Virus record (IMG/VR): IMGVR_UViG_3300045391_005020
From: a virus
Lineage: Duplodnaviria > Caudoviricetes
Direction: 5' to 3' (one strand)
Length of the DNA stretch: 64,000 nt
Shown here in pieces: positions 35,010 to 51,235 of this stretch. Under the pieces are notes generated by a model. That model was not told the origin of the DNA. It saw nothing but the letters and a program-made list of their open reading frames with translations, and made no database searches. The translations under genes were made by a program, and so were the position numbers. The stretch's first letter is position 1, and each line of letters starts with the position of its first letter.

Positions 35010-35224
35010 GATCGAGACAATATGATTGACTAGATGACAGTACAGTAAATTTTACCGCTGTTCCCAGGACTCCCGTTCGAGGCGCCGGCGTTCGGCTTCG
35101 GCGTGCCGGTACAGGGTCTCGAATTCGTTGGAACGATCCGCGAGCCACTTGTTAGTGGAGCGCAGCAGCAGGATCCAGGTGACCAAGGAGCCGATAACGA
35201 GCAGGAGCGCAAACAAGATCCAAA

Positions 35225-39054: not shown

Positions 39055-39092
39055 AAAAATAAGGAACCCCGGGCTTTTCGGCCCGGGGCTCA
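39055..39092 (-). terminator. Intrinsic terminator downstream of the tRNA operon
   Basis: ccccgggc-loop-gcccgggg hairpin followed by a T-rich tail on the minus strand. Confidence 0.7.
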
Positions 39093-39479
39093 CAATTACC
39101 AATCCAACAACAAGTTAAACCAATCCAACCTGGTCGAAATTACCTACGCAGGGAGAGCGGTCAAACGTCGTCCTCTGTTATATTTCCGCTTGCTTCTGTG
39201 CTTTCCAGGGCATCCAGCGGATCCCTGTGGGGTTTGAGCGCCGGCACAAGGGGACTTTCCTCGGCGGCTGCGTAGATCGCCTCGATCCAGGCCATCGCCC
39301 CGAGACCGTGGTGGATCCTGACCAAAACCCGTATCTTGCACCCCAGGCAGGTGCCTGCTCCATGACAGATACACGTCTTCATACCAAGTCGATTGTGACG
39401 ATCCGGGAACGAAAGTCACGCGCCAGCTTGAGACCCCGTTTCCCGGCTGGGAAACCCAACTGTGGAACAATTCTTTAAG

Positions 39480-39550
39480 TGGCACAGCCCCCAGGTATTG
39501 CACCTGGCCCGCCGGATTTGGAGTTCGGCGCCTCCCTTGGAGAAGGCCAT
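39480..39550 (-). tRNA. tRNA-Trp(CCA), atypical reduced D-arm
   Basis: CTCCAAA loop, T-arm CCAGG/CCTGG and encoded CCA. Weak acceptor stem. Confidence 0.55.
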
Positions 39551-39781: not shown

Positions 39782-40081
39782 GTGATCGATGAAGAATTTG
39801 TAATCGTCGACGGCTCTGTCGAGTCGCCCCTGTTGACCGCTGAGGAGGCTGCGGCCTATCTGCGCTGTCACCCCAAGACGCTTGGTAAGCGTGGGGTGCC
39901 ATATGTCGACCTGGGGCATCGATCACACTTCTACCGGAAAGAGGACCTCGATGCTTGGATCGCGCAGCGGCTCAAGAAGCCGCTCGCATCCGCGCCGGCG
40001 CGCGTGGATGTCCTGGCGCTCGAGCCCGTGCGCGAGTACCTGCCGAAGCGCCGGAAGCGCGCTACGAGTCGAGCTTCCTGA
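39782..40081 (+). CDS. Excisionase-like HTH protein
   Basis: LLTAEEAAAYLRCHPKTL...YRKEDLDAWI, convergent with the integrase. Confidence 0.75.
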   Translation: MIDEEFVIVDGSVESPLLTAEEAAAYLRCHPKTLGKRGVPYVDLGHRSHFYRKEDLDAWIAQRLKKPLASAPARVDVLALEPVREYLPKRRKRATSRAS

Positions 40082-41396
40082 CCACTTCCCTGAACACCGT
40101 GCGCGACGGGTGCGCGTATCGCTCGGTGAGCTTCGTCGAGCTGTGTCCCATGAGTCCCTGGATGTGGTAGATGTCCACGTCCTTCTCGGTCAACCGGGTG
40201 GCGTACGTATGGCGCAGATCGTGGATCCTGAGCGTCGGTTTTCCGAGTTCCTCCCGGACTCGTTCCCACGCCTTGCGGAGCCCGACGGCCGGGCGTGGCC
40301 CGAACCGCTGTTCTTCCGCGGCGAGCCGCATCTTCACTGCTTCTTCGCGGGTCAAGAAAACCCCGAGGTACTTGGGGCGACCGCCGCGGCCACTCCCGAT
40401 CTCGGCGCGGTACCGGATGGCGCCGCCCTTCTGGCGCACCTTGCGGACGCCGAGGATTTGTCCGCCAGGAACCGATCGCTTCGGGAGCCGCGTGTTGCGC
40501 TCGCGATCGAGCCGAGACAGGGTGCCAGCGTGCCACGGAAAGATTGGCTCGGCGGCGCGGGCCTGGGCGACCTGCTTCAACTCCGCGACCGTGGCGACAC
40601 CGGCGCGACGCAGCAGCATGTCGATCGTTCGGTTCCGGAGCGGAACCTCGCGCATCTTATGGTTCTTGGTCACGTACCCCAGCAGACGCACGAACGGCTC
40701 GAGCTTCTCGGTGAACAGGATCGAGCTCCACGTGAGCGCCAAACCTTCACGCCGCCGCGCGCCCGTATCCATCAAGAGCATCGCGTAGTCGCGCAGGTCG
40801 GGCGTTGGCTCGCACAGCGCCAGCAACCGATCCGCTTCGGCCTCGCTCAGGGCCAGGTAGTTCGCAACCCCGACCGGCACCTTTTTGAATTCCGGAACCG
40901 GCATCCCGGCTCCCCAAAACTTGTTCGCGTACCGGCACACCACCGTGACGTTCATGAGCGTGGTGTTCACCGTGTTGGGGGCCAAGCCGGCCGCCAGCAT
41001 GGCGCGTTTGAAATCGCTCAGGCGCTCGGTGGTCACCGCGGTCAGCGGCGTCTTCTCGCCCAGGAACTCGACGATCCGGCCGAACAGAGACGCGCGGGTT
41101 GCCAAGGACTGCTTGTAGGGTCGATCGTGGTAGCAGGGGGCCACCACCTCGACCAGGTAGTCGTCGAACGCTTTCTTGACCGTCAGAGCCGAGCGCTCCG
41201 GCGGTGCCACGGTCACGGCCATGATCGGCACATGCTGGGCCTGGTCGCGCGCCGCCTTCCGGAGATTCACCTTCCACTCGTCCTCGAACTCGCGCGCGTC
41301 GTTCTTGGTCGGGAAGCCGCGCCGCGTGAAGCGTTGGTTCTTAAACTCGAACTGGACGTAGTAGGAATCGGTGCGTTTGTCGAAGCAGGCAGACAT
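40062..41396 (-). CDS. int: Tyrosine integrase with N-terminal arm-binding domain and an inserted AP2-like domain
   Basis: TGARRRE, HDLRHTYAT and LMGHSSTKLTERYAH catalytic motifs. Insertion GVRKVRQ..YRAEI..KYLGVFLTREEA. Confidence 0.92.
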   Translation of the reverse strand: MSACFDKRTDSYYVQFEFKNQRFTRRGFPTKNDAREFEDEWKVNLRKAARDQAQHVPIMAVTVAPPERSALTVKKAFDDYLVEVVAPCYHDRPYKQSLATRASLFGRIVEFLGEKTPLTAVTTERLSDFKRAMLAAGLAPNTVNTTLMNVTVVCRYANKFWGAGMPVPEFKKVPVGVANYLALSEAEADRLLALCEPTPDLRDYAMLLMDTGARRREGLALTWSSILFTEKLEPFVRLLGYVTKNHKMREVPLRNRTIDMLLRRAGVATVAELKQVAQARAAEPIFPWHAGTLSRLDRERNTRLPKRSVPGGQILGVRKVRQKGGAIRYRAEIGSGRGGRPKYLGVFLTREEAVKMRLAAEEQRFGPRPAVGLRKAWERVREELGKPTLRIHDLRHTYATRLTEKDVDIYHIQGLMGHSSTKLTERYAHPSRTVFREVVRKLDS

Positions 41397-42334: not shown

Positions 42335-42531
42335 GAGATCTGGAATCCGATCGGAGCCGGACGGTTCAGGATGTCGTCGTGGCGGGCTTCGTCTTCTTCG
42401 CGGGCGCAGCGAGCGGCCCGGATCTCGTTGATCAGGAACATGATGGCGGCTCCTACCAGGAAACCGGCCGCGAATCCGACGGAGAGTATGATTGGCACAC
42501 CCGGATCATAACGAGTCAAGTCTATTGTCAA

Positions 42532-42606
42532 TGGTGCTGGCCCAGGGAATTGAACCCCGGTCTGAGCGGTACGAAGGCCCTGTTCTGCTAACTAAACTAG
42601 GCCAGC
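42532..42606 (-). tRNA. tRNA-Thr(CGT), second copy
   Basis: GCTGGCC/GGCCAGC acceptor stem, TTCGTAC loop, CCA. Confidence 0.7.
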
Positions 42607-42660
42607 ATGGCGAGACAATAGATTTGACTGACAGTGTAATATTACATACAGTCGGCCGGT

Positions 42661-43431
42661 ATGCGTACCGCCCTCCTGCTGTTACTATTCGGAACTCTGT
42701 CGGCCGCGGTCCCGGGAATCCCTGAGCCGCCGGCGCCGGGCCCGATCCCGGAAGTGACGCTCGGGTGGTTCAACGACTGGCACGCGATCCCGACCACGCA
42801 CTCGGATGATCACCGGACCAACGCGTTCATCGTGGGGATCCGGATCGACGACTGGGTCTACCAAGTCGACGACTCGATGCTCACGTCGCGCGAGCTCGGG
42901 GTCAGGAACGACGAACTCTCGCTGACCGCAGGCTACATCATCGCGAACGACGAGTCGGCCTCGATCGTCCTCGGCGGCGGGGTTCGGCTCCGCGGAGACT
43001 ATGGCGGCGAGTCCACCCAGAACTGGTGGCATTCGCAGTGGCGCGATTACCCGGTCCACCTTGCGTACGAAGACTCGGTTCCGAGCCCGATTCTCTACAT
43101 GATGAATCACCTGCGGACGTTTCCGCTCAACGATCATTCGCTCGAGATCATCGCGGACGGTGAAGTCCTGTCGGACGCGCTCGCCGTCGATCTCGGGCTG
43201 CGCGACGTCGTGTTCCTGAATGACGCCGGTGACATCCGTATCTGGTTCGGCCCGCGCTGGCAGTTCCGCGAAGATTGGCAGGACAATCAGATCGGTCCCG
43301 AGATCGCTCGATTCGAACGAGGTCTCTGGATCGACTACGGGATCCAGATCGGTCACTTCAGCCTCGGAGAACGCCATGCGATCGGGCGCTCCGAAGGCAT
43401 GGGCACGATCAGCTGGAGCTGTGGATTCTAA
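42661..43431 (+). CDS. Outer-membrane beta-barrel, lipid A deacylase LpxR-like
   Basis: Signal peptide, ND...DD.RTNA motif, QNWWH, amphipathic strands and terminal Phe. TTGACT-17-TACAGT promoter upstream. Confidence 0.55.
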   Translation: MRTALLLLLFGTLSAAVPGIPEPPAPGPIPEVTLGWFNDWHAIPTTHSDDHRTNAFIVGIRIDDWVYQVDDSMLTSRELGVRNDELSLTAGYIIANDESASIVLGGGVRLRGDYGGESTQNWWHSQWRDYPVHLAYEDSVPSPILYMMNHLRTFPLNDHSLEIIADGEVLSDALAVDLGLRDVVFLNDAGDIRIWFGPRWQFREDWQDNQIGPEIARFERGLWIDYGIQIGHFSLGERHAIGRSEGMGTISWSCGF

Positions 43432-43601
43432 TGACCAAAGTACCTCTTTCGCCCTGGACGCGCCTCACGAGTCGCTCCGAACTGGAGTCTGACGCGCGCT
43501 ACTTCAAGCTGCTCGACGAAAACGGCCGGAAGCATCTGACCGCAGAAACAAAGAAGCGCATCGACGCACTCCGGATGATGTACGGCGACGACGCCTGATG
43601 A

Positions 43602-43679
43602 TGGTCGGCGCCGTGGGAGTCGAACCCACCTGTGACCGCTTATAAGACGGCTTGCGACTGAACCGGTCGCGTGACGCCA
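43602..43679 (-). tRNA. tRNA-Ile(TAT)
   Basis: GCCGT-CTTATAA-GCGGT anticodon arm, TTCGACT T-loop, CCA. Confidence 0.75.
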
Positions 43680-43682
43680 CTG

Positions 43683-44468
43683 TTATGGTTCAGGGGCCCA
43701 GGTGACCGAGCTGAACTCGATGTGCCTGGTAGAGTCTGGATTCCAGACGTCGAACACTTTGACGCCGGTTCCTTCGTCCATCGGGATATAGGCGTCCGCG
43801 GCGCTCACGTTGGTGAGCGGGCTTGGCGGGTTCGACTGATACGTTACCGCATAGAAGTTTCGCATGTAACCGTTGATTCCCGGGTTGTCGTAGCCGACGC
43901 GCATCCCGAGGAGACCAGCGCCCGTCGTGATGTTCGCCCCGACTGTTCCAGAGACCACTGAGACTCCGTTGAGAAACACAGCCGTTACGCGAGACGTGTT
44001 GACGGTGATCCTGATTGTGTTCCACGCACCGAAGTTGAATAGACCGGGAGCTGAGCTGTTCTGGAAGGCTCCGCCCGCCCATTGTGCTTGCCAGCGCAAC
44101 GATCCGTCACCCATCACCCGTAACTCATACCCGTAATTTGAGACGTTCCACGGTGCCCCGAAAGAGAACAAGCCAGCGGATCCAGAGGCGTGATTGACTT
44201 CGAACTCCCACGTGCGGGCCTGGAGACCGCCGGCCGCGATGTGCCACATCGTGTTTCCGCGCCCGTAGAACGCCTGGTTGGTGCTGCCGAGGCTCTGGAG
44301 GTTGGTGTCGAACGGCCGATCGTAAATCGTTTCCGGCATGCGCCCGCCCTGGACGGCTTCAACATGCGAGAGAGCCTCGGTCTTCCGGAACCTGTCTTGC
44401 TCGATCTGGTTCTGCTGGCCAGCTGGAGTTCGACTCTTACCGTTGTCGGTTACGCGGAATTTAGGCAT
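43683..44468 (-). CDS. Concanavalin A/LamG-like lectin domain protein
   Basis: Beta-sandwich pattern WNTIRITV..VFLNG..INGYMRNF and YIPMDEGTG..VFD. Confidence 0.6.
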   Translation of the reverse strand: MPKFRVTDNGKSRTPAGQQNQIEQDRFRKTEALSHVEAVQGGRMPETIYDRPFDTNLQSLGSTNQAFYGRGNTMWHIAAGGLQARTWEFEVNHASGSAGLFSFGAPWNVSNYGYELRVMGDGSLRWQAQWAGGAFQNSSAPGLFNFGAWNTIRITVNTSRVTAVFLNGVSVVSGTVGANITTGAGLLGMRVGYDNPGINGYMRNFYAVTYQSNPPSPLTNVSAADAYIPMDEGTGVKVFDVWNPDSTRHIEFSSVTWAPEP

Positions 44469-44506
44469 ACCACAGAGTTTATGGTTGCCATGTCGGCATA
44501 CTAGGG

Positions 44507-44582
44507 TGGCGTCGCGGGGTGGGCTCGAACCACCAGCCTCCAGCTTCGGAGGCTGGTGCTCGTCCGATCGAGCTGCCGCGAC
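44507..44582 (-). tRNA. tRNA-Arg(CCG)
   Basis: CCAGC-CTCCGAA-GCTGG, CCA. Confidence 0.85.
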
Positions 44583-44586
44583 AAAA

Positions 44587-44661
44587 TGGAACGCATGCTG
44601 GGAATCGCACCCAGATCCTCTCGCTGGCAGCGAGACGTCTTAGCTGTTAGACGACACACGC
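44587..44661 (-). tRNA. tRNA-Gly(GCC)
   Basis: TCTCG-CTGCCAG-CGAGA, U73, CCA. Confidence 0.8.
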
Positions 44662-44667
44662 GTGAAA

Positions 44668-45096
44668 CTAAAGAAGCGGAAGCTGTCCCGTCACGGGATC
44701 GATCTCGTGGTCCCAGTGTGGACCGATCGCCAGACACGTCTTGGTCGGAACCCCGTTGAACTCGGTGAGGCCGCGGTCTTCGATCAGATGACACCGTAGC
44801 CCACGAGCCTTCGCGGCCAGCTCGATGTCGAGCAAGGCCTGCTCGGACTCAACGTAGCAGCAGATCTTCCGGAAGTTGCCGAAGTACCAGGCTTGCTCGG
44901 CCGGATCCAGGAAGATCCCGTCGAGCTCGATTTTGACGTCGTTGTCCTTCAGGCCTGGACGGCTCTCGCGCGGCCCGAACACTTTGAGCATCAGGGCTGC
45001 GATGCTGGCATGAGATCCCTGAGCGATCATCTTACCCTTGCGCATATTGAGGTCCTTGCGGACCACGATCACTTGCTTAACCGAGTTGACTGACAT
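44668..45096 (-). CDS. pth2: Peptidyl-tRNA hydrolase, Pth2 family
   Basis: KQVIVVRKDLNMRKGKMIAQGSHA and DRGLTE..TCLAIGP. Confidence 0.92.
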   Translation of the reverse strand: MSVNSVKQVIVVRKDLNMRKGKMIAQGSHASIAALMLKVFGPRESRPGLKDNDVKIELDGIFLDPAEQAWYFGNFRKICCYVESEQALLDIELAAKARGLRCHLIEDRGLTEFNGVPTKTCLAIGPHWDHEIDPVTGQLPLL

Positions 45097-45135
45097 GGCA
45101 GCACTGTACAGAGTCCTTGTTGGGTTGGAAGGAAA

Positions 45136-45212
45136 TGGTCCGCCGCGTAGGACGTGCGCCTACATCCCCCGGTTAAGAGCCGGGTGCATCTGTCTGTTTA
45201 TGCTTGCAGCGA
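45136..45212 (-). tRNA. tRNA-Lys(CTT)
   Basis: CCCGG-CTCTTAA-CCGGG, CCA. Atypical T-loop CGCACGT. Confidence 0.8.
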
Positions 45213-45218
45213 ATGAAG

Positions 45219-45293
45219 TGGTTGACCACCACGGGGTCGATCCGTGTTCCCTCGGTTAAAAGCCGAGTGCATCAGCCCTAATGCTTGTGATCT
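45219..45293 (-). tRNA. tRNA-Lys(TTT)
   Basis: CTCGG-CTTTTAA-CCGAG, CCA. Confidence 0.8.
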
Positions 45294-45299
45294 GTGAAA

Positions 45300-45373
45300 T
45301 GGAGGCGCGAGGAGGAATCAAACCTCCGTGGACAGGGTTGCAATCTGCCGCCTGGTCACTCGGCCATCGCGTC
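45300..45373 (-). tRNA. tRNA-Cys(GCA)
   Basis: TTGCAAC loop, U73, CCA. Confidence 0.85.
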
Positions 45374-45470
45374 TTGAAAAGTAAAGGGTGCCCGTTCTTC
45401 CTATTGGTAGAAGAACGGGACTTGTTGGTGTCACGCGTGATGACACCACGGGTACGGTCGTCCGGCCCAG

Positions 45471-45758
45471 TCAGGCGACTTCTGGAGTTCGCTGCTCCGG
45501 GAGACCGAGGAACGCATTGCGCATGTTCTCGATGCGCGACTCTGGCGACCGGTGCGCCGTCGGCTTACCGCGGATCACAAGCGAGAGGTCGTGAAGGGTG
45601 CTGATCAGGAGCGCGTTGTAGTGCGCCTGAGACTGCGCGACGCGAGCTGCGTTGCTCACGTGTGGCTCGTGCGTGACCGCCTTGAAGGCGACCTGCATGG
45701 CAACGAGCTTCTTGAGCTCGCACCGTATTTTGTAGACGTCGTCGGAGATCTGGGACAT
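45471..45758 (-). CDS. Hypothetical helical protein downstream of the Pth2-like gene
   Basis: 95 aa with RBS aaagg, directly following the Pth2-like gene. Confidence 0.55.
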   Translation of the reverse strand: MSQISDDVYKIRCELKKLVAMQVAFKAVTHEPHVSNAARVAQSQAHYNALLISTLHDLSLVIRGKPTAHRSPESRIENMRNAFLGLPEQRTPEVA

Positions 45759-45761
45759 TGG

Positions 45762-46097
45762 TTACCTTTCAGGATTCCAGAGTTTGTGGTGACGAAACAG
45801 TTTCCTGGCCTCGCCCGAGATGGGCGCGGTCGCGAGCGCGGTAGCGGCGTTGCCGATATCGGGCTCTCGGAAGAGAGTGAGAGGAATGCCGGCCCCGGTG
45901 AGCCGCTCAGCTTCCTGGAGAAGCTCGAGCTCAGACGGGACACCGATCACGATCAGGTGGCTGATCTGGTCGGTCTGGTACGGGTGGAGGAGTGCGACCT
46001 CGTGGGTCGCGTGGGCAGCCTGAACAAGCTGCTGGGCCAATGGCAGGTCTAGCCTGACAAGGCAGTAGACGTAGCCGGGTAGCTAGGCGTTCTTCAT
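45762..46097 (-). CDS. Pth2-like protein interrupted by in-frame TAG at codon 5 (readthrough candidate)
   Basis: ATG AAG AAC GCC TAG CTA CCC GGC TAC GTC TAC... reads MKNA*LPGYVYCLVRLDLPLAQQLVQAAHA...FREPDIGNAATALAT. Confidence 0.75.
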
Positions 46098-46138
46098 GGT
46101 AACGATTTCACCAAGCTGACCAGGGCGGTCAAGGCTAT

Positions 46139-46372
46139 TCAATCTTCGTAATCCAGCTTCTGGAGCTCGTCCAGATCGCGGTCACTCAGGTGCTCTTCGG
46201 GCGAGGGCGTGTTCAGCAAGGTGACGCCGTTGATCGCGGTCACGTGCTTCATGTAGCGCTTCAGGAGCTCTTTGTAGTCGGGCTCAGCCTGCTGGACCAT
46301 AACGGCAAGCCGGTTATTCGACTTACCGATCTGGCGCAGGTTGGCTTTGAAGGTATCGGACGCTTTAGTCAT
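46139..46372 (-). CDS. Hypothetical protein (77 aa)
   Basis: Strong RBS aggag, between the suppressor tRNA and the Pth2-like gene. Confidence 0.55.
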   Translation of the reverse strand: MTKASDTFKANLRQIGKSNNRLAVMVQQAEPDYKELLKRYMKHVTAINGVTLLNTPSPEEHLSDRDLDELQKLDYED

Positions 46373-46384
46373 GGCTGGCTCCTA

Positions 46385-46460
46385 TGGTGCCCCCGGTGGG
46401 ATTCTCGCCCACAACCGCCGGGTTTAGAATCCGCCGCTCTTGATATTGAGCTACGGGGGC
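46385..46460 (-). tRNA. Amber suppressor tRNA (anticodon CTA)
   Basis: 76 nt: GCCCCCG TA GCTC AATATCAA GAGC G GCGGA TTCTAAA CCCGG CGGTT GTGGG CGAGAAT CCCAC CGGGGGC A CCA, with CTA at positions 34-36. Confidence 0.8.
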
Positions 46461-46467
46461 ATGGGGG

Positions 46468-46496
46468 ACTATGGCACAATATAACGCCACAGTCAA
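46468..46496 (-). promoter_or_regulatory. Sigma70-like promoter for the suppressor tRNA
   Basis: TTGACT-17 bp-CATAGT with TG extension. Confidence 0.6.
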
Positions 46497-46517
46497 GGCC
46501 ATTGTCACGAATCGGAC

Positions 46518-47411
46518 CTACTCCTGGCCCTCGCGCTTGTATTCATTCATCTTACTGATCTTCAGGTTGACCTCTTCGACTGCCTGCTTCTTCTGCTTGG
46601 TCTTGGCACCTTTACGGGCGCTGGCAGAGCGTTCGTCGATCATGCGGTCTCTGGTGTTGCCGAGCAGGTCCTCGGTGGCGCTGAACAGACGCTTAACCGA
46701 TTTGTCTTCGCGCCACTGCTCTATCGCCCAGGTGCAGTTCCAGTAGTTGTCGCTGGAGCCCGAACCGATGCGATCACCCAGCACCGCGTTGCGGAGGACC
46801 AAGATCGGACTGCCTTCAGGCAGATCCGTGCCGGCCAGGTATGAGTCGATGAACTCCTCGGCCTTCCGAGGATAGAAGTGATGGAAAACCACCATTGCCG
46901 CCGCGATGGTCGCGCGGGTTAAACGAGCACGTTTCGTGTTGAATTTCCCGGTCACGAACTCGAACGACGCAGACATCTTGAGGAAAGTGTCCTCGAGTTC
47001 GTCGATCGTCGGGCGGTGGTGGACGCCGGTGCACTTCAGATACTGGCTAACGATCTGATTGCAGAGACGGTTATGGGCCGGGTCATTCAGAAGTTTGAGG
47101 CACTCGAAGCTGGTACGATTGCGACCGCGGTCCGTATGCTTAGCGATTTCAGGACTACCGCCGCGCATGACGTACATCCACTGCCCTTTGCCAGTAATGA
47201 CGATCGCGGCGAGTCGGTGTTGGCCGTCGAGTACTTCACCGTCTTTACCGATGCAGATACCCTGATGGGTCGTCATGAACTCATCGTTCATAATAAGCCG
47301 GACGAAGTAATCGGTATTGGCCGGCGTCATCGGGCGCGCGTTGTTGTGGTTGTGGTTTTTTAGCAAGTCCTCGGCTATTTCCTTGGACACGTATTCTCGG
47401 TTGTACGACAT
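46518..47411 (-). CDS. ParB/Srx-like (DGQHR) domain protein
   Basis: N-terminal NARP..THQGI..LDGQHRLAAI. Confidence 0.7.
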   Translation of the reverse strand: MSYNREYVSKEIAEDLLKNHNHNNARPMTPANTDYFVRLIMNDEFMTTHQGICIGKDGEVLDGQHRLAAIVITGKGQWMYVMRGGSPEIAKHTDRGRNRTSFECLKLLNDPAHNRLCNQIVSQYLKCTGVHHRPTIDELEDTFLKMSASFEFVTGKFNTKRARLTRATIAAAMVVFHHFYPRKAEEFIDSYLAGTDLPEGSPILVLRNAVLGDRIGSGSSDNYWNCTWAIEQWREDKSVKRLFSATEDLLGNTRDRMIDERSASARKGAKTKQKKQAVEEVNLKISKMNEYKREGQE

Positions 47412-47525
47412 AGGATCTTTCCCGCCCGCTGTGGGCCATTTCGTAGACAGTGTAAATTCGCGTTACCGAGGCCAAATATACGAGCTGTTGCACACAGTCA
47501 AGATCATTGTATTGATCGTACTAAA

Positions 47526-47603
47526 TGGTCGGGATGGCGGGATTTGAACCCACGATCTCCTGGTCCCAAGCCAGGCGGAGTAACCAGACTCTCCTACACC
47601 CCT
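47526..47603 (-). tRNA. tRNA-Pro(TGG)
   Basis: CCTGG-CTTGGGA-CCAGG, CCA. Confidence 0.85.
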
Positions 47604-47610
47604 ATGAAAA

Positions 47611-47687
47611 TGGTCAGAGTGGTTGGATTTGAACCAACGATCTCCTGGATCCGAACCAGGCAGAATACCAAGCTTTCCCACACTCTG
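47611..47687 (-). tRNA. tRNA-Pro(CGG)
   Basis: CCTGG-TTCGGAT-CCAGG, CCA. Confidence 0.85.
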
Positions 47688-47692
47688 AAAAA

Positions 47693-47767
47693 TGGCGCCC
47701 CCACGCGGTGCTGCCCCGCGCTCTCCTGATAGACAATCAGGCGTCTTAGCTGATGGACGATGAGAGC
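47693..47767 (-). tRNA. tRNA-Asp(GTC)
   Basis: CCTGA-TTGTCTA-TCAGG, G73. T-loop GGCAGCA. Confidence 0.75.
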
Positions 47768-47771
47768 AAAA

Positions 47772-47866
47772 GCCCGCGCTTTATTCGACCGCCTTCGCGG
47801 CCACCCGTTCAACCGACGGGCAGGTCAGCCTTACGGCTGCGCGGAACCTGATTGCCTTGCGGCACG
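47772..47866 (-). ncRNA. Structured, pseudoknot-capable RNA in a tRNA spacer
   Basis: Four hairpins (two with GNRA loops) plus crossing pairings CAGGTT/GACCTG and CCGCGC/GCGCGG. Confidence 0.5.
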
Positions 47867-47868
47867 AA

Positions 47869-47943
47869 TGGTGGATCCGAGGTGACTCGCACACCTATCC
47901 CTCTGCTTGCAAAGCAGCCGCTCTTCTTTGGAGCTACGAACCC
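47869..47943 (-). tRNA. tRNA-Ala(TGC)
   Basis: TTTGCAA loop, G3:U70, A73, CCA. Confidence 0.85.
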
Positions 47944-48005
47944 GAAAAACATGCAGATAACGCGCTGGTTCCCGCGGCCTATTGATTTGCTATTCCGCCC
48001 GGACG

Positions 48006-48110
48006 GGAGCGGTTGCTGGCTCGAGCACAGCGGCGGCGTGTTACCAATTACACTAACCGGAGCAACCCGGCCGGGCGTCGAACCCGATTTCCGCAAGAGG
48101 TGACCGCTCC
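48006..48110 (-). ncRNA. Circularly permuted tRNA-like RNA (Y RNA/YrlA-like)
   Basis: Terminal stem GGAGCGGT/ACCGCTCC encloses, in order, a T-arm (GGGTTCGACGCCC), a loop-closed acceptor-like stem and a D-arm (GTGT AATTGGTA ACAC). Confidence 0.55.
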
Positions 48111-48234
48111 ATGCCTGGTACGGGTTGAGCGCGATCTCGAGCAGCGCTGCAGCGTGGCTCGATGTTTCGCTCGGTCATTCTCGTCCTAAGGGGACGGGTG
48201 GCCCGTAGAGGATTTGATCCTCAGCGATCATGAA

Positions 48235-48311
48235 TGGAGGGAGAAGGCGGAATCGAACCGTCTTGCGAGCGCGCCCGCATCGAGCCCAGGTATCCCTGTT
48301 CGAATTCTCCC
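48235..48311 (-). ncRNA. tRNA-like RNA with acceptor stem, T-arm and CCA but no canonical D/anticodon arms
   Basis: GGGAGAA/TTCTCCC acceptor, GGTTCGATTCC T-arm and two non-standard hairpins. Confidence 0.55.
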
Positions 48312-48316
48312 ATGAA

Positions 48317-48405
48317 TGGCGGGGTGAGATGGGTTCTATACCACCGACCTCTCATTGGCCGACATTGCTGTCGGCGAATAAGTGCTCTCGCTGAGCTACC
48401 ACCCC
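48317..48405 (-). ncRNA. tRNA-like RNA whose anticodon loop is replaced by an extended GNRA-capped helix
   Basis: Normal acceptor, D and T arms and CCA. Anticodon arm reads CTTATT-C-GCCGACA-GCAA-TGTCGGC-C-AATGAG. Confidence 0.65.
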
Positions 48406-48470
48406 AAAGAGGATCCGTCGGTCACGAACACTGATGAGGTGCTCGATTCGGTCATCAGCCGACCGACGGC

Positions 48471-48813
48471 GTTAAGTTGTTTGAAGCGAGCTCGAGTGAG
48501 GGGTTACAATTCCCTGACTTATCTCCGCAATCACGTATTCGACCATCCTGCCTCATCCGTGCCCGAACGGCCGTTCGGGACACCGGGTCAACAGCAGGAG
48601 GAGGACTCTCACCTCCACACGCTCGCCTTCTAGTCGTTATATTTGGCTACCAAGCGTGGCTCTCGAGTTGCGCACCGATGAACACCCAATGCGTCTCGAT
48701 CGTCGTCTTGCGCTTTCGCGTTCTTTCGTACCTCTTTATGTTCTCAAGAGTGCCTTGGTCCCCGAAGGACGGGTTGGCTCGGCCACACGCGGGCGCGCTT
48801 CAATCAACTTAAC
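48471..48813 (-). ncRNA. ~340-nt structured ncRNA closed by a long terminal helix
   Basis: GTTAAGTTG-A-TTGAAGCG pairs with CGCTTCAA-A-CAACTTAAC. Internal hairpins include the T-arm-like GGAGGTGAGAGTCCTCC. No credible ORF. Confidence 0.55.
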
Positions 48814-48820
48814 AAACTGG

Positions 48821-48832
48821 ATTTCAAAGATC
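48821..48832 (-). promoter_or_regulatory. boxA-like antitermination element
   Basis: GATCTTTGAAAT directly upstream of the ncRNA helix, resembling rRNA leader boxA. Confidence 0.5.
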
Positions 48833-48884
48833 GAAGCACAGATAATCCGGTCCCGGCCATGATAGTCAAGGCCATTGTTATGAT

Positions 48885-48961
48885 TGGTTGCGAGTCTTGG
48901 AATTGCACCAAGCTACTTGGCTTATGAGACCAGGCAGGATCTATCTCCTGTCGAACTCGCA
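48885..48961 (-). tRNA. tRNA with CAT anticodon (Met or Ile2)
   Basis: CTGGT-CTCATAA-GCCAA, TGCGAGT/ACTCGCA acceptor, CCA. Confidence 0.75.
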
Positions 48962-50597: not shown

Positions 50598-50671
50598 TGG
50601 CAGCCAGGCAGGGAATCGAACCCCGATATCGTGGTTAACAGCCACGTGTAATACCGTTATACGACCCGACT
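50598..50671 (-). tRNA. tRNA-Asn(GTT)
   Basis: CGTGG-CTGTTAA-CCACG, G73, CCA. Confidence 0.85.
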
Positions 50672-50733
50672 AAATGTCGGCCGTCCTCGACCTCTGCCGA
50701 GGACGGCCCACAAGAATTGTTCCACAGTATAGA

Positions 50734-50748
50734 GTTTTCAAAGACAGC
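50734..50748 (-). promoter_or_regulatory. boxA-like antitermination element at the head of the tRNA operon
   Basis: GCTGTCTTTGAAAAC. Confidence 0.6.
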
Positions 50749-50759
50749 CTGAAACGCAT

Positions 50760-50786
50760 GAACCCCAGGCTTTTGGCCTGGGGTTC
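50760..50786 (-). terminator. Attenuator terminator hairpin
   Basis: GAACCCCAGGC-CAAAA-GCCTGGGGTTC perfect 11-bp stem with a weak U tail. Confidence 0.6.
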
Positions 50787-50813
50787 GGGAGAGTCAGCGC
50801 AGAAGATGCTGTG

Positions 50814-50948
50814 TTACTCTCGGACCCCCAGGATATCGCCATTACCGCGTTCAGTACCGACACAAATTCCCGTAGTCACGGCTTGCGGTTTGGCATGCCA
50901 TGTGGGCTTGGTCATCGCGGCTGGATTTCTGAGGGCTATAGAAAGCAT
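50814..50948 (-). CDS. Putative 44-aa attenuator leader peptide
   Basis: MLSIALRNPAAMTKPTWHAKPQAVTTGICVGTERGNGDILGVRE*. Its 3' end overlaps the antiterminator strand. Confidence 0.55.
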   Translation of the reverse strand: MLSIALRNPAAMTKPTWHAKPQAVTTGICVGTERGNGDILGVRE

Positions 50949-50977
50949 GATGTCCTGGCGTCCCAAGATAACGCCCA

Positions 50978-51235
50978 TCACTTGGAAGTCAAGCTAACGG
51001 GCGAGTTCTTCCAGACGCCGCGGATACTGGTGGCGATCCAGACAACCTGCAGTGCCACAATCGCCCACGCGCTGGTCTCCCAGCCATAGATGGCCAAGAA
51101 AATGTCGCTGACGATGAACCACACGAAGCCCCACATGCGGGTGCGGGAGACCTGGCTGGCGACCAACAGGGCGCCGAGCAAACCGGCCGCGGCAGCCGGC
51201 CACTGGCACAAGAGCGCGATGTCGTGCCAGGTCAC
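50978..51235 (-). CDS. Small three-helix membrane protein
   Basis: Hydrophobic segments and GFVWFIVSD motif. Confidence 0.55.
   Translation of the reverse strand: MTWHDIALLCQWPAAAAGLLGALLVASQVSRTRMWGFVWFIVSDIFLAIYGWETSAWAIVALQVVWIATSIRGVWKNSPVSLTSK

Follow-up and report, generated by a model that had tools for sequence, protein, structure and literature searches.

A candidate rRNA-operon-style leader at the head of a phage tRNA array

Arrays of tRNA genes are common in large phages and, to our knowledge, it is largely unknown how such long, mostly untranslated blocks avoid premature Rho termination and how they are processed; our literature search found no description of either boxA or leader-trailer closure for phage tRNA arrays. 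Among the closest described systems is the ribosomal RNA (rrn) operon, whose antitermination complex, rrnTAC, comprises NusA, NusB, NusE, NusG, S4 and SuhB. The Bacillus subtilis rrn boxA, AUGAUCUUUGAAA, is a direct binding site of NusB and follows closely on a small hairpin (PMC13753749), and the gammaproteobacterial boxA consensus is GYTCTTTAANA (PMC5725501). A further leader element, boxC, belongs to the 5' strand of the helix that rrn leader and trailer form, and Nus factors bound at boxA are thought to keep the leader strand with the polymerase up to the emergence of the trailer (PMC10250234). boxA is also known ahead of CRISPR arrays, which are long non-coding arrays too (PMC7862264, citing Stringer 2020).

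We here describe the stretch that precedes a phage tRNA array, lying in a window of 64,000 nt (the whole stretch of DNA analysed) from a 148.6-kb IMG/VR phage contig of 60% G+C; the elements studied are on the minus strand. On the evidence of its sequence, we give about an even chance to the reading that a unit for transcribing and processing the phage tRNA genes, built in the style of an rRNA operon, begins with this stretch. As in an rrn leader, a hairpin is followed by boxA and then by a GU-rich boxC-like element, the last of these in a strand able to pair with sequence directly past the last mature RNA; no base of the boxA core differs from the Bacillus-type and deltaproteobacterial rrn boxA, and a long stable-RNA block follows. 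Unlike rrn operons, however, in which one rRNA of 1.5-2.9 kb is enclosed by a helix of 25-40 bp, the phages would enclose about 22 tRNA genes together with protein genes, over 11.2 kb, with a helix of 14-21 bp, and the resulting 11-kb loop far exceeds any that we know to be enclosed by leader-trailer helices. The phage boxA also lies about 215 nt from its putative transcription start, past a short open reading frame (ORF) and a strong hairpin, and the array has internal promoters, in both respects unlike rrn operons.

With the boxA elements of CRISPR arrays and suhB the putative boxA of the phage shares a position ahead of a long, repetitive array of non-coding sequence, whose distal genes would be starved if transcription ended prematurely (PMC5725501, PMC7862264); those elements, however, follow the gammaproteobacterial consensus and have no leader-trailer helix. 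The nut sites of lambda (boxA-boxB, with the N protein) offer a further parallel, i.e. a phage boxA that would modify host polymerase, but here the hairpin precedes boxA, as in rrn leaders, and the target is a tRNA array and not the delayed-early genes.

The array, its promoters and one relative

The setting is defined by the following features, of which the first two are separated by a gap of 306 nt.

Stop at 50978, minus strand: upstream gene for an 85-aa PnuC-like membrane protein, the last of a protein-gene cluster
50598..50671, minus strand: tRNA-Asn(GUU), with which the array opens; 97% identical in the relative
42500..48892, minus strand: four internal promoters of the phage consensus type, with ACAAT starts at 48878, 47510, 46505 and 42528
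40062-41396, minus strand: 444-aa tyrosine recombinase (PF00589, E 3.9e-20), inside the tRNA array

The array comprises at least 20 (about 22) tRNA genes, together with protein genes, spread over about 11 kb. A search of 5.8 billion proteins returned a single homologue of the 374-aa protein encoded nearby; its contig, of 213.6 kb, is from Hainich groundwater, and this relative has the same gene order around the array. Its flanking genes are 65-71% identical to those of our phage at the nucleotide level and 49-78% identical as proteins; Pth2 is 76% identical, and the tyrosine recombinase at the far end of the array only 32%. No match was found in phage GenBank, searched with the DNA and with the 374-aa protein, or in IMG/VR, searched with three neighbouring proteins; a pattern scan of IMG/VR gave no occurrence of the element, and one of the JGI metagenomes gave the same single relative and chance matches only. 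All conservation figures below therefore compare two genomes, this phage and the one relative. A protein index lists a 214,858-nt contig with the same proteins, i.e. a more complete assembly of this phage exists.

The contig contains some 18 copies of a promoter-like consensus, consisting of atcgtaACAAT, 4 nt, TTGACT, about 15 nt and a TACAGT-like box, e.g. at 72650, 70304, 65237, 60316, 56386, 48878, 47510, 46505 and 42528 on the minus strand and at 35017, 39033, 39751 and 42615 on the plus strand, and the same type is found inside the array of the relative. Its short spacing, together with the ACAAT box ahead of it, points to a dedicated sigma factor or to an UP-like element. Since four copies lie on the sense strand inside the array, the leader cannot be the sole control of the 11 kb, and the proposal of an earlier, model-generated reading of this DNA (the first-pass annotation) that it controls the whole 11-kb operon does not hold. 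Transcripts from these internal promoters would be without the leader, which likewise counts against an rrn-style reading.

boxA, boxC and the leader-trailer complement

The elements on which the comparison with rrn operons turns are given below in the order in which they would be transcribed.

50760..50786, minus strand: hairpin A, a perfect 11-bp G+C-rich stem with a CAAAA loop (-23.1 kcal/mol)
50734..50744, minus strand: boxA-like TCTTTGAAAAC, within an 18-nt block (50744-50727) identical at 18/18 positions in the relative
50707..50728, minus strand: leader strand of the complement, 17 nt at 50728-50712 and then GTGG
50715-50707, minus strand: boxC-like TCTTGTGGG, inside the leader strand
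50679..50708, minus strand: hairpin 2, an 11-bp stem ending 7 nt before tRNA-Asn
39483-39550, minus strand: tRNA-like element with anticodon CCA (Trp), sub-threshold at 15.3 bits, with an encoded CCA end, following tRNA-Ile
39459..39482, minus strand: trailer strand, i.e. CCAC, a 3-nt bulge and the exact 17-nt complement at 39475-39459
39064..39091, minus strand: hairpin B with a good T-tract, a predicted intrinsic terminator closing the array region, which passes the terminator scan

The strongest constraint in the gap is on the non-coding block from hairpin A to GTGGG, whose 80 nt are 91-96% identical in the relative, i.e. conserved like the tRNA itself; the 53 nt directly past hairpin A are 91% identical, and conservation of the block from the hairpin to boxC exceeds chance. 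Within it, the identification of TCTTTGAAAAC as an rrn-type boxA, which the first-pass annotation had already made, is well supported by its sequence, position and conservation and by its matches to real rrn leaders. The motif lies on the sense strand between the promoter and the long stable-RNA region. Its UCUUUGAAA core equals the B. subtilis rrn consensus over 9-10 contiguous bases and the motif does not fit the gammaproteobacterial one, either of which may not be the consensus of the host; the two bases preceding TCTTT differ between this phage and the relative. TCTTTGAAA occurs three times in the phage genome against 0.3 expected. In E. coli the elements of the rrnH leader follow one another in the same way, with ACAATCTGTGTGGGC at the matching place and a boxC region alike at 12/15 bases.

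Real rrn leaders were sought in one genome per species (185,579 genomes) as boxA followed by TGTGGG within 5-30 nt. This gave 120 stretches. In seven of these, against about 0.04 expected, a 16S or 23S gene starts 20-126 nt downstream; the seven belong to Geomonas, Desulfuromonadales, Desulfobacterales, two other deltaproteobacterial MAGs, Gemmatimonadota and a Bacteroidetes MAG. In the only one with a whole 16S gene, the bases directly after boxA pair 15/15 with the 16S trailer. The same boxA 12-mer is found upstream of 16S genes in six bacterial genomes. These matches hint, weakly, at a Desulfuromonadota-like host.

Other boxA-like motifs were considered. One at 48830, with a closing helix, was rejected, being unconserved and overlapping tRNA-like sequence. 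This second TCTTTGAAAT sits 12 nt past the -10 box of the internal promoter at 48878 (region 48230-48840, minus strand) and is followed by a 29-nt imperfect complement (48799-48771/48296-48268) that closes a structured region of about 520 nt; the region holds cryptic tRNA-like sequences (about 48407-48313 and 48309-48232) and is not conserved in the relative. Among 21 distant phage tRNA arrays found through Pth2 no enrichment of boxA was seen, and at 15 distant arrays the complement described below was not found, so that boxA or leader-trailer pairing as a general feature of phage tRNA arrays was rejected. In one distant phage, on a 188-kb IMG/VR contig (L015, 2746-2756), the array is preceded, 15 nt ahead of its first tRNA, by GTTCTTTAACA, which fits the gammaproteobacterial consensus perfectly.

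The second line of evidence is a complement, detected by k-mer and repeat search, between the two ends of the array. The 17-nt leader strand begins 5 nt after the boxA motif (one base past the 18-nt conserved block), and the trailer strand is found 11.2 kb away, 4 nt past the CCA end of the final tRNA-like element. The 17 bp compare with a null maximum of 11 for the leader against any other 500-nt window of the region, and the 14 bp of the relative with a null maximum of 10. The two strands are placed alike in both phages, one 38 nt ahead of tRNA-Asn and the other 81 nt past tRNA-Ile, and the complement is supplemented by a helix of 3-4 bp (GTGG with CCAC) across a 3-nt bulge; a 12-nt core is common to both, and the complement is extended on a different side in each. 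Because this core is identical in the two phages, the helix is without compensatory changes, and because two other exact 17-nt inverted repeats in the phage genome look like chance, it is only by position and conservation that chance alone is excluded. The RNAduplex energy was dropped as a statistic for the long-range helix, long inputs making it uninformative.

Hairpin 2 has changed its stem letters between the phages and kept its pairing, with several compensatory changes involving both sides; it could be a 5' processing or stabilising element. At the far end of the array, the tRNA-like element recurs in the relative (L088 12576-12643, 20.8 bits) and is missed by ARAGORN. The relative has a T-tract at the place of hairpin B too, behind a stem of different sequence. 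In this phage hairpins A and B nearly duplicate each other, one pair having changed in a compensatory way, and in the relative they are unrelated; the likeness is probably lineage-specific, and an origin of the two hairpins as att-site duplicates was rejected on the same ground.

It is unlikely, though the best of the alternatives, that the gap holds only ordinary gene-end and gene-start signals, in which case the ORF would be a minor gene or empty, hairpin A a leaky terminator of the upstream cluster, and the next 50 nt a tRNA promoter or operator whose 12-nt core, present at both ends of the array, binds a DNA regulator. The upstream genes are co-stranded, with no terminator before hairpin A, and the core, GGAACAATTCTT, which has a GAA-3 nt-TTC dyad, is conserved as sequence and not just as complementarity. 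TTGAAA-17 nt-AATTCT is readable as a weak promoter (8/12) with its start at hairpin 2, and the arm of the relative carries TACAGT, the consensus -10 box of the phage. However, TTGAAA/AATTCT falls below the scan threshold and is without the invariant ACAAT/TTGACT signature of the phage. Moreover, this reading explains neither why rrn boxA and boxC are matched, and in the correct order, nor why the complement is extended beyond the core in each phage, an extension that in this phage amounts to five extra perfect pairs (chance about 0.002).

The leader reading frame and hairpin A

Upstream of the conserved block lie the following features, including three of the four segments between which alternative pairings had been proposed; hairpin A is the pairing of segments 3 and 4.

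50965..50992, minus strand: predicted sigma-70-like promoter, TTGACT-16 nt-TATCTT, both hexamers identical in the relative
50963-50949, minus strand: segment 1, spanning the ribosome-binding site and start region
50814..50948, minus strand: 44-codon ORF, possibly translated, with ATG at 50948 and TAA at 50816-50814
50837-50822, minus strand: segment 2, near the end of the ORF
50793-50777, minus strand: segment 3, overlapping the 5' arm of hairpin A

The promoter has its -35 box within the last codons of the upstream gene and its -10 box beyond the stop of that gene, and 7/16 bases of its spacer differ in the relative, with the hexamers unchanged. The 44-codon ORF is as first annotated, using 18 amino acids with Phe and Tyr absent, and it is without codon runs; AGGA at 50956-50953 is placed 5 nt upstream. 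The counterpart in the relative has 47 codons, in the same frame and with the same stop context (CGAGAGTAA), and begins with an ATG 7 nt after the -10 box (possibly leaderless); the stop lies 26-27 nt from hairpin A in both phages. Because frame, stop context and hairpin distance are kept, the ORF may well be translated. A 55-codon version, with a GTG start overlapping the upstream stop, was rejected as not conserved.

The statistics of the frame are less distinctive. The 42 aligned codons comprise 18 identical ones, 7 with synonymous differences only and 17 with non-synonymous differences; the differences by codon position (13/10/20) are most frequent at the third, a bias that is not significant, and indels are in frame. 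The ORF diverges about as fast as its neighbours (71% nucleotide identity). Its coding score (0.05) and GC3 (0.58) are the lowest among the neighbouring genes, its coding scores are those expected for an open non-coding frame, and a 44-codon open frame is unremarkable at 60% G+C. The CAI-like value, 0.47, falls in the lowest 1.4% of gene windows. Codons read by phage tRNAs make up 63% of the leader and 56% genome-wide, a difference that is not significant, 25% of gene windows reaching 63%. Word-based and full profile searches for homologues of the leader peptide gave no small-protein family and one marginal match, to a 629-aa protein, and the ORF was not called by the source gene callers. A perfect 10-bp palindrome, TGGCATGCCA, at 50891-50900 (minus strand) lies inside the ORF in a 14-nt block identical in the relative, and may serve as a site for protein binding or form the stem of a small, conserved hairpin.

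The first-pass annotation had combined boxA with a trp/his-type leader-peptide attenuator, and of this combination the boxA part stood and the attenuator part is weak. In such a device a ribosome at the stop would cover segment 2, so that hairpin A terminates transcription, and a slowed ribosome would allow the 2:3 pairing and readthrough into the tRNA genes. We regard a translation-sensing attenuator of this kind as a minority possibility, and a doubtful one. Its best evidence is the arrangement itself, i.e. a conserved promoter directly upstream of the ORF, start signals in both phages, the conserved frame, stop context and hairpin distance with in-frame indels, and a rare-codon bias that would slow translation. 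As in the trp, his and thr attenuators, about 27 nt separate the end of a short ORF from a G+C-rich hairpin whose 5' arm can pair with a segment at the end of the ORF: in the best truncated-transcript folds of both phages, CCCCAG of the hairpin is paired with CUGGGG, which directly precedes the stop. The three pairings were recovered at their annotated places, the perfect 11-bp hairpin included, and folding reproduces the scheme, a transcript ending before segment 4 forming 2:3 and one including segment 4 forming 1:2 and 3:4.

Against this, the alternative pairing is at chance level. The best fold of 50975-50730 has z = -2.9 for a stretch that contains the strong hairpin A. In 400 dinucleotide-preserving shuffles of the leader, with the hairpin kept intact, the 2:3 gain of 4.9 kcal/mol compares with 4.2 +/- 2.4, 34% of shuffles matching or exceeding it, and 43% of shuffles pair at least 7/11 of the hairpin-arm bases. 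In the relative the gain (2.5 against 4.0 +/- 2.5 in shuffles) is below the shuffle mean, 71% of shuffles doing as well. Segment 1 is absent there, segment 2 folding with another upstream partner. As segment 1 here comprises the ribosome-binding site and start, a ribosome stalled in mid-ORF would not mask it or free segment 2, contrary to the earlier proposal that stalling at almost any codon would do so. The phage leader is thus unlike those of the trp, his and thr operons in having no regulatory codon runs and a segment 1 that is neither conserved nor under the stalling ribosome, as well as a weak U-tract. Rfam at E up to 1 gave only tRNAs and no leader family, the internal promoters would bypass the device, and neither the codon-position bias nor the coding scores argue for translation. 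Sensed-codon enrichment, an antiterminator beyond chance and a segment 1 under the stalled ribosome were, in sum, each found to be lacking.

The terminator itself is equivocal. The stem of hairpin A is identical in the relative; its tail in this phage, ATGCGTTT (ATGCGTTTC), fails the terminator scan, and the tail of the relative, TTGCGTTT, passes, a point in favour of attenuation. U-tract scores are 0.83 in this phage and 2.14 in the relative, against 2.15 and 3.68 for the array-end terminator. In our reading hairpin A resembles boxB and would at most terminate leakily.

It is highly improbable that the 17-bp inverted repeats are instead recombination sites at which the tyrosine recombinase flips the tRNA array as an on/off switch: inversion is suggested by the Phage_integrase-family gene inside the 11.2-kb segment that the perfect repeats bound, by the same layout in the relative and by a repeat length (about 17 bp) typical of invertons, but the recombinases are only 32% identical between phages that have an unchanged repeat core, a single orientation is seen in this contig and in the contigs of the relative spanning the repeats or array (L083/L088, L084, L085, L089, L090), the left arm sits in a block resembling an rrn leader, and the other two 17-nt inverted repeats of the genome are chance-like.

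A putative rRNA-operon-style unit

The rRNA-operon-style reading starts from established sequences, their conservation and their likeness to rrn leaders; every RNA-level and protein-binding step in it is one that we infer. Host-type RNA polymerase would start at the TTGACT/TATCTT promoter, or read in from the upstream genes, and cross the short, possibly translated ORF. It would then transcribe in turn hairpin A, boxA and the boxC-like GU-rich element, i.e. the boxB-boxA-boxC order of rrn leaders, and hairpin A may also stop some unmodified polymerases as a leaky terminator. boxA would recruit NusB/NusE and other Nus factors, making the polymerase processive and Rho-resistant over the largely untranslated array. 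The boxC-bearing leader strand would remain tethered to the polymerase and pair with its complement as this emerges past the last tRNA, 11.2 kb downstream; by the tethered-leader logic of rrn operons, a loop of 11 kb could likewise close here. The array would thereby be enclosed in a leader-trailer helix, a likely substrate of RNase III.

A combination of this reading with attenuation, in which translation of the ORF gates passage of hairpin A and those polymerases that pass meet boxA, become Nus-modified and close the array, is in our view very unlikely. Were it true, the tRNA supply of the phage would respond to the state of translation and be made by way of borrowed rRNA-synthesis machinery.

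If the rRNA-operon-style reading of the locus is correct, the phage borrows the antitermination and folding machinery of host rRNA synthesis, i.e. boxA, boxC and a helix that encloses 11 kb, for its own tRNAs. The biology of boxA would then reach beyond rRNA, suhB and CRISPR arrays, and the locus would test the reach of the 'tethered leader' model of the rrn antitermination complex.
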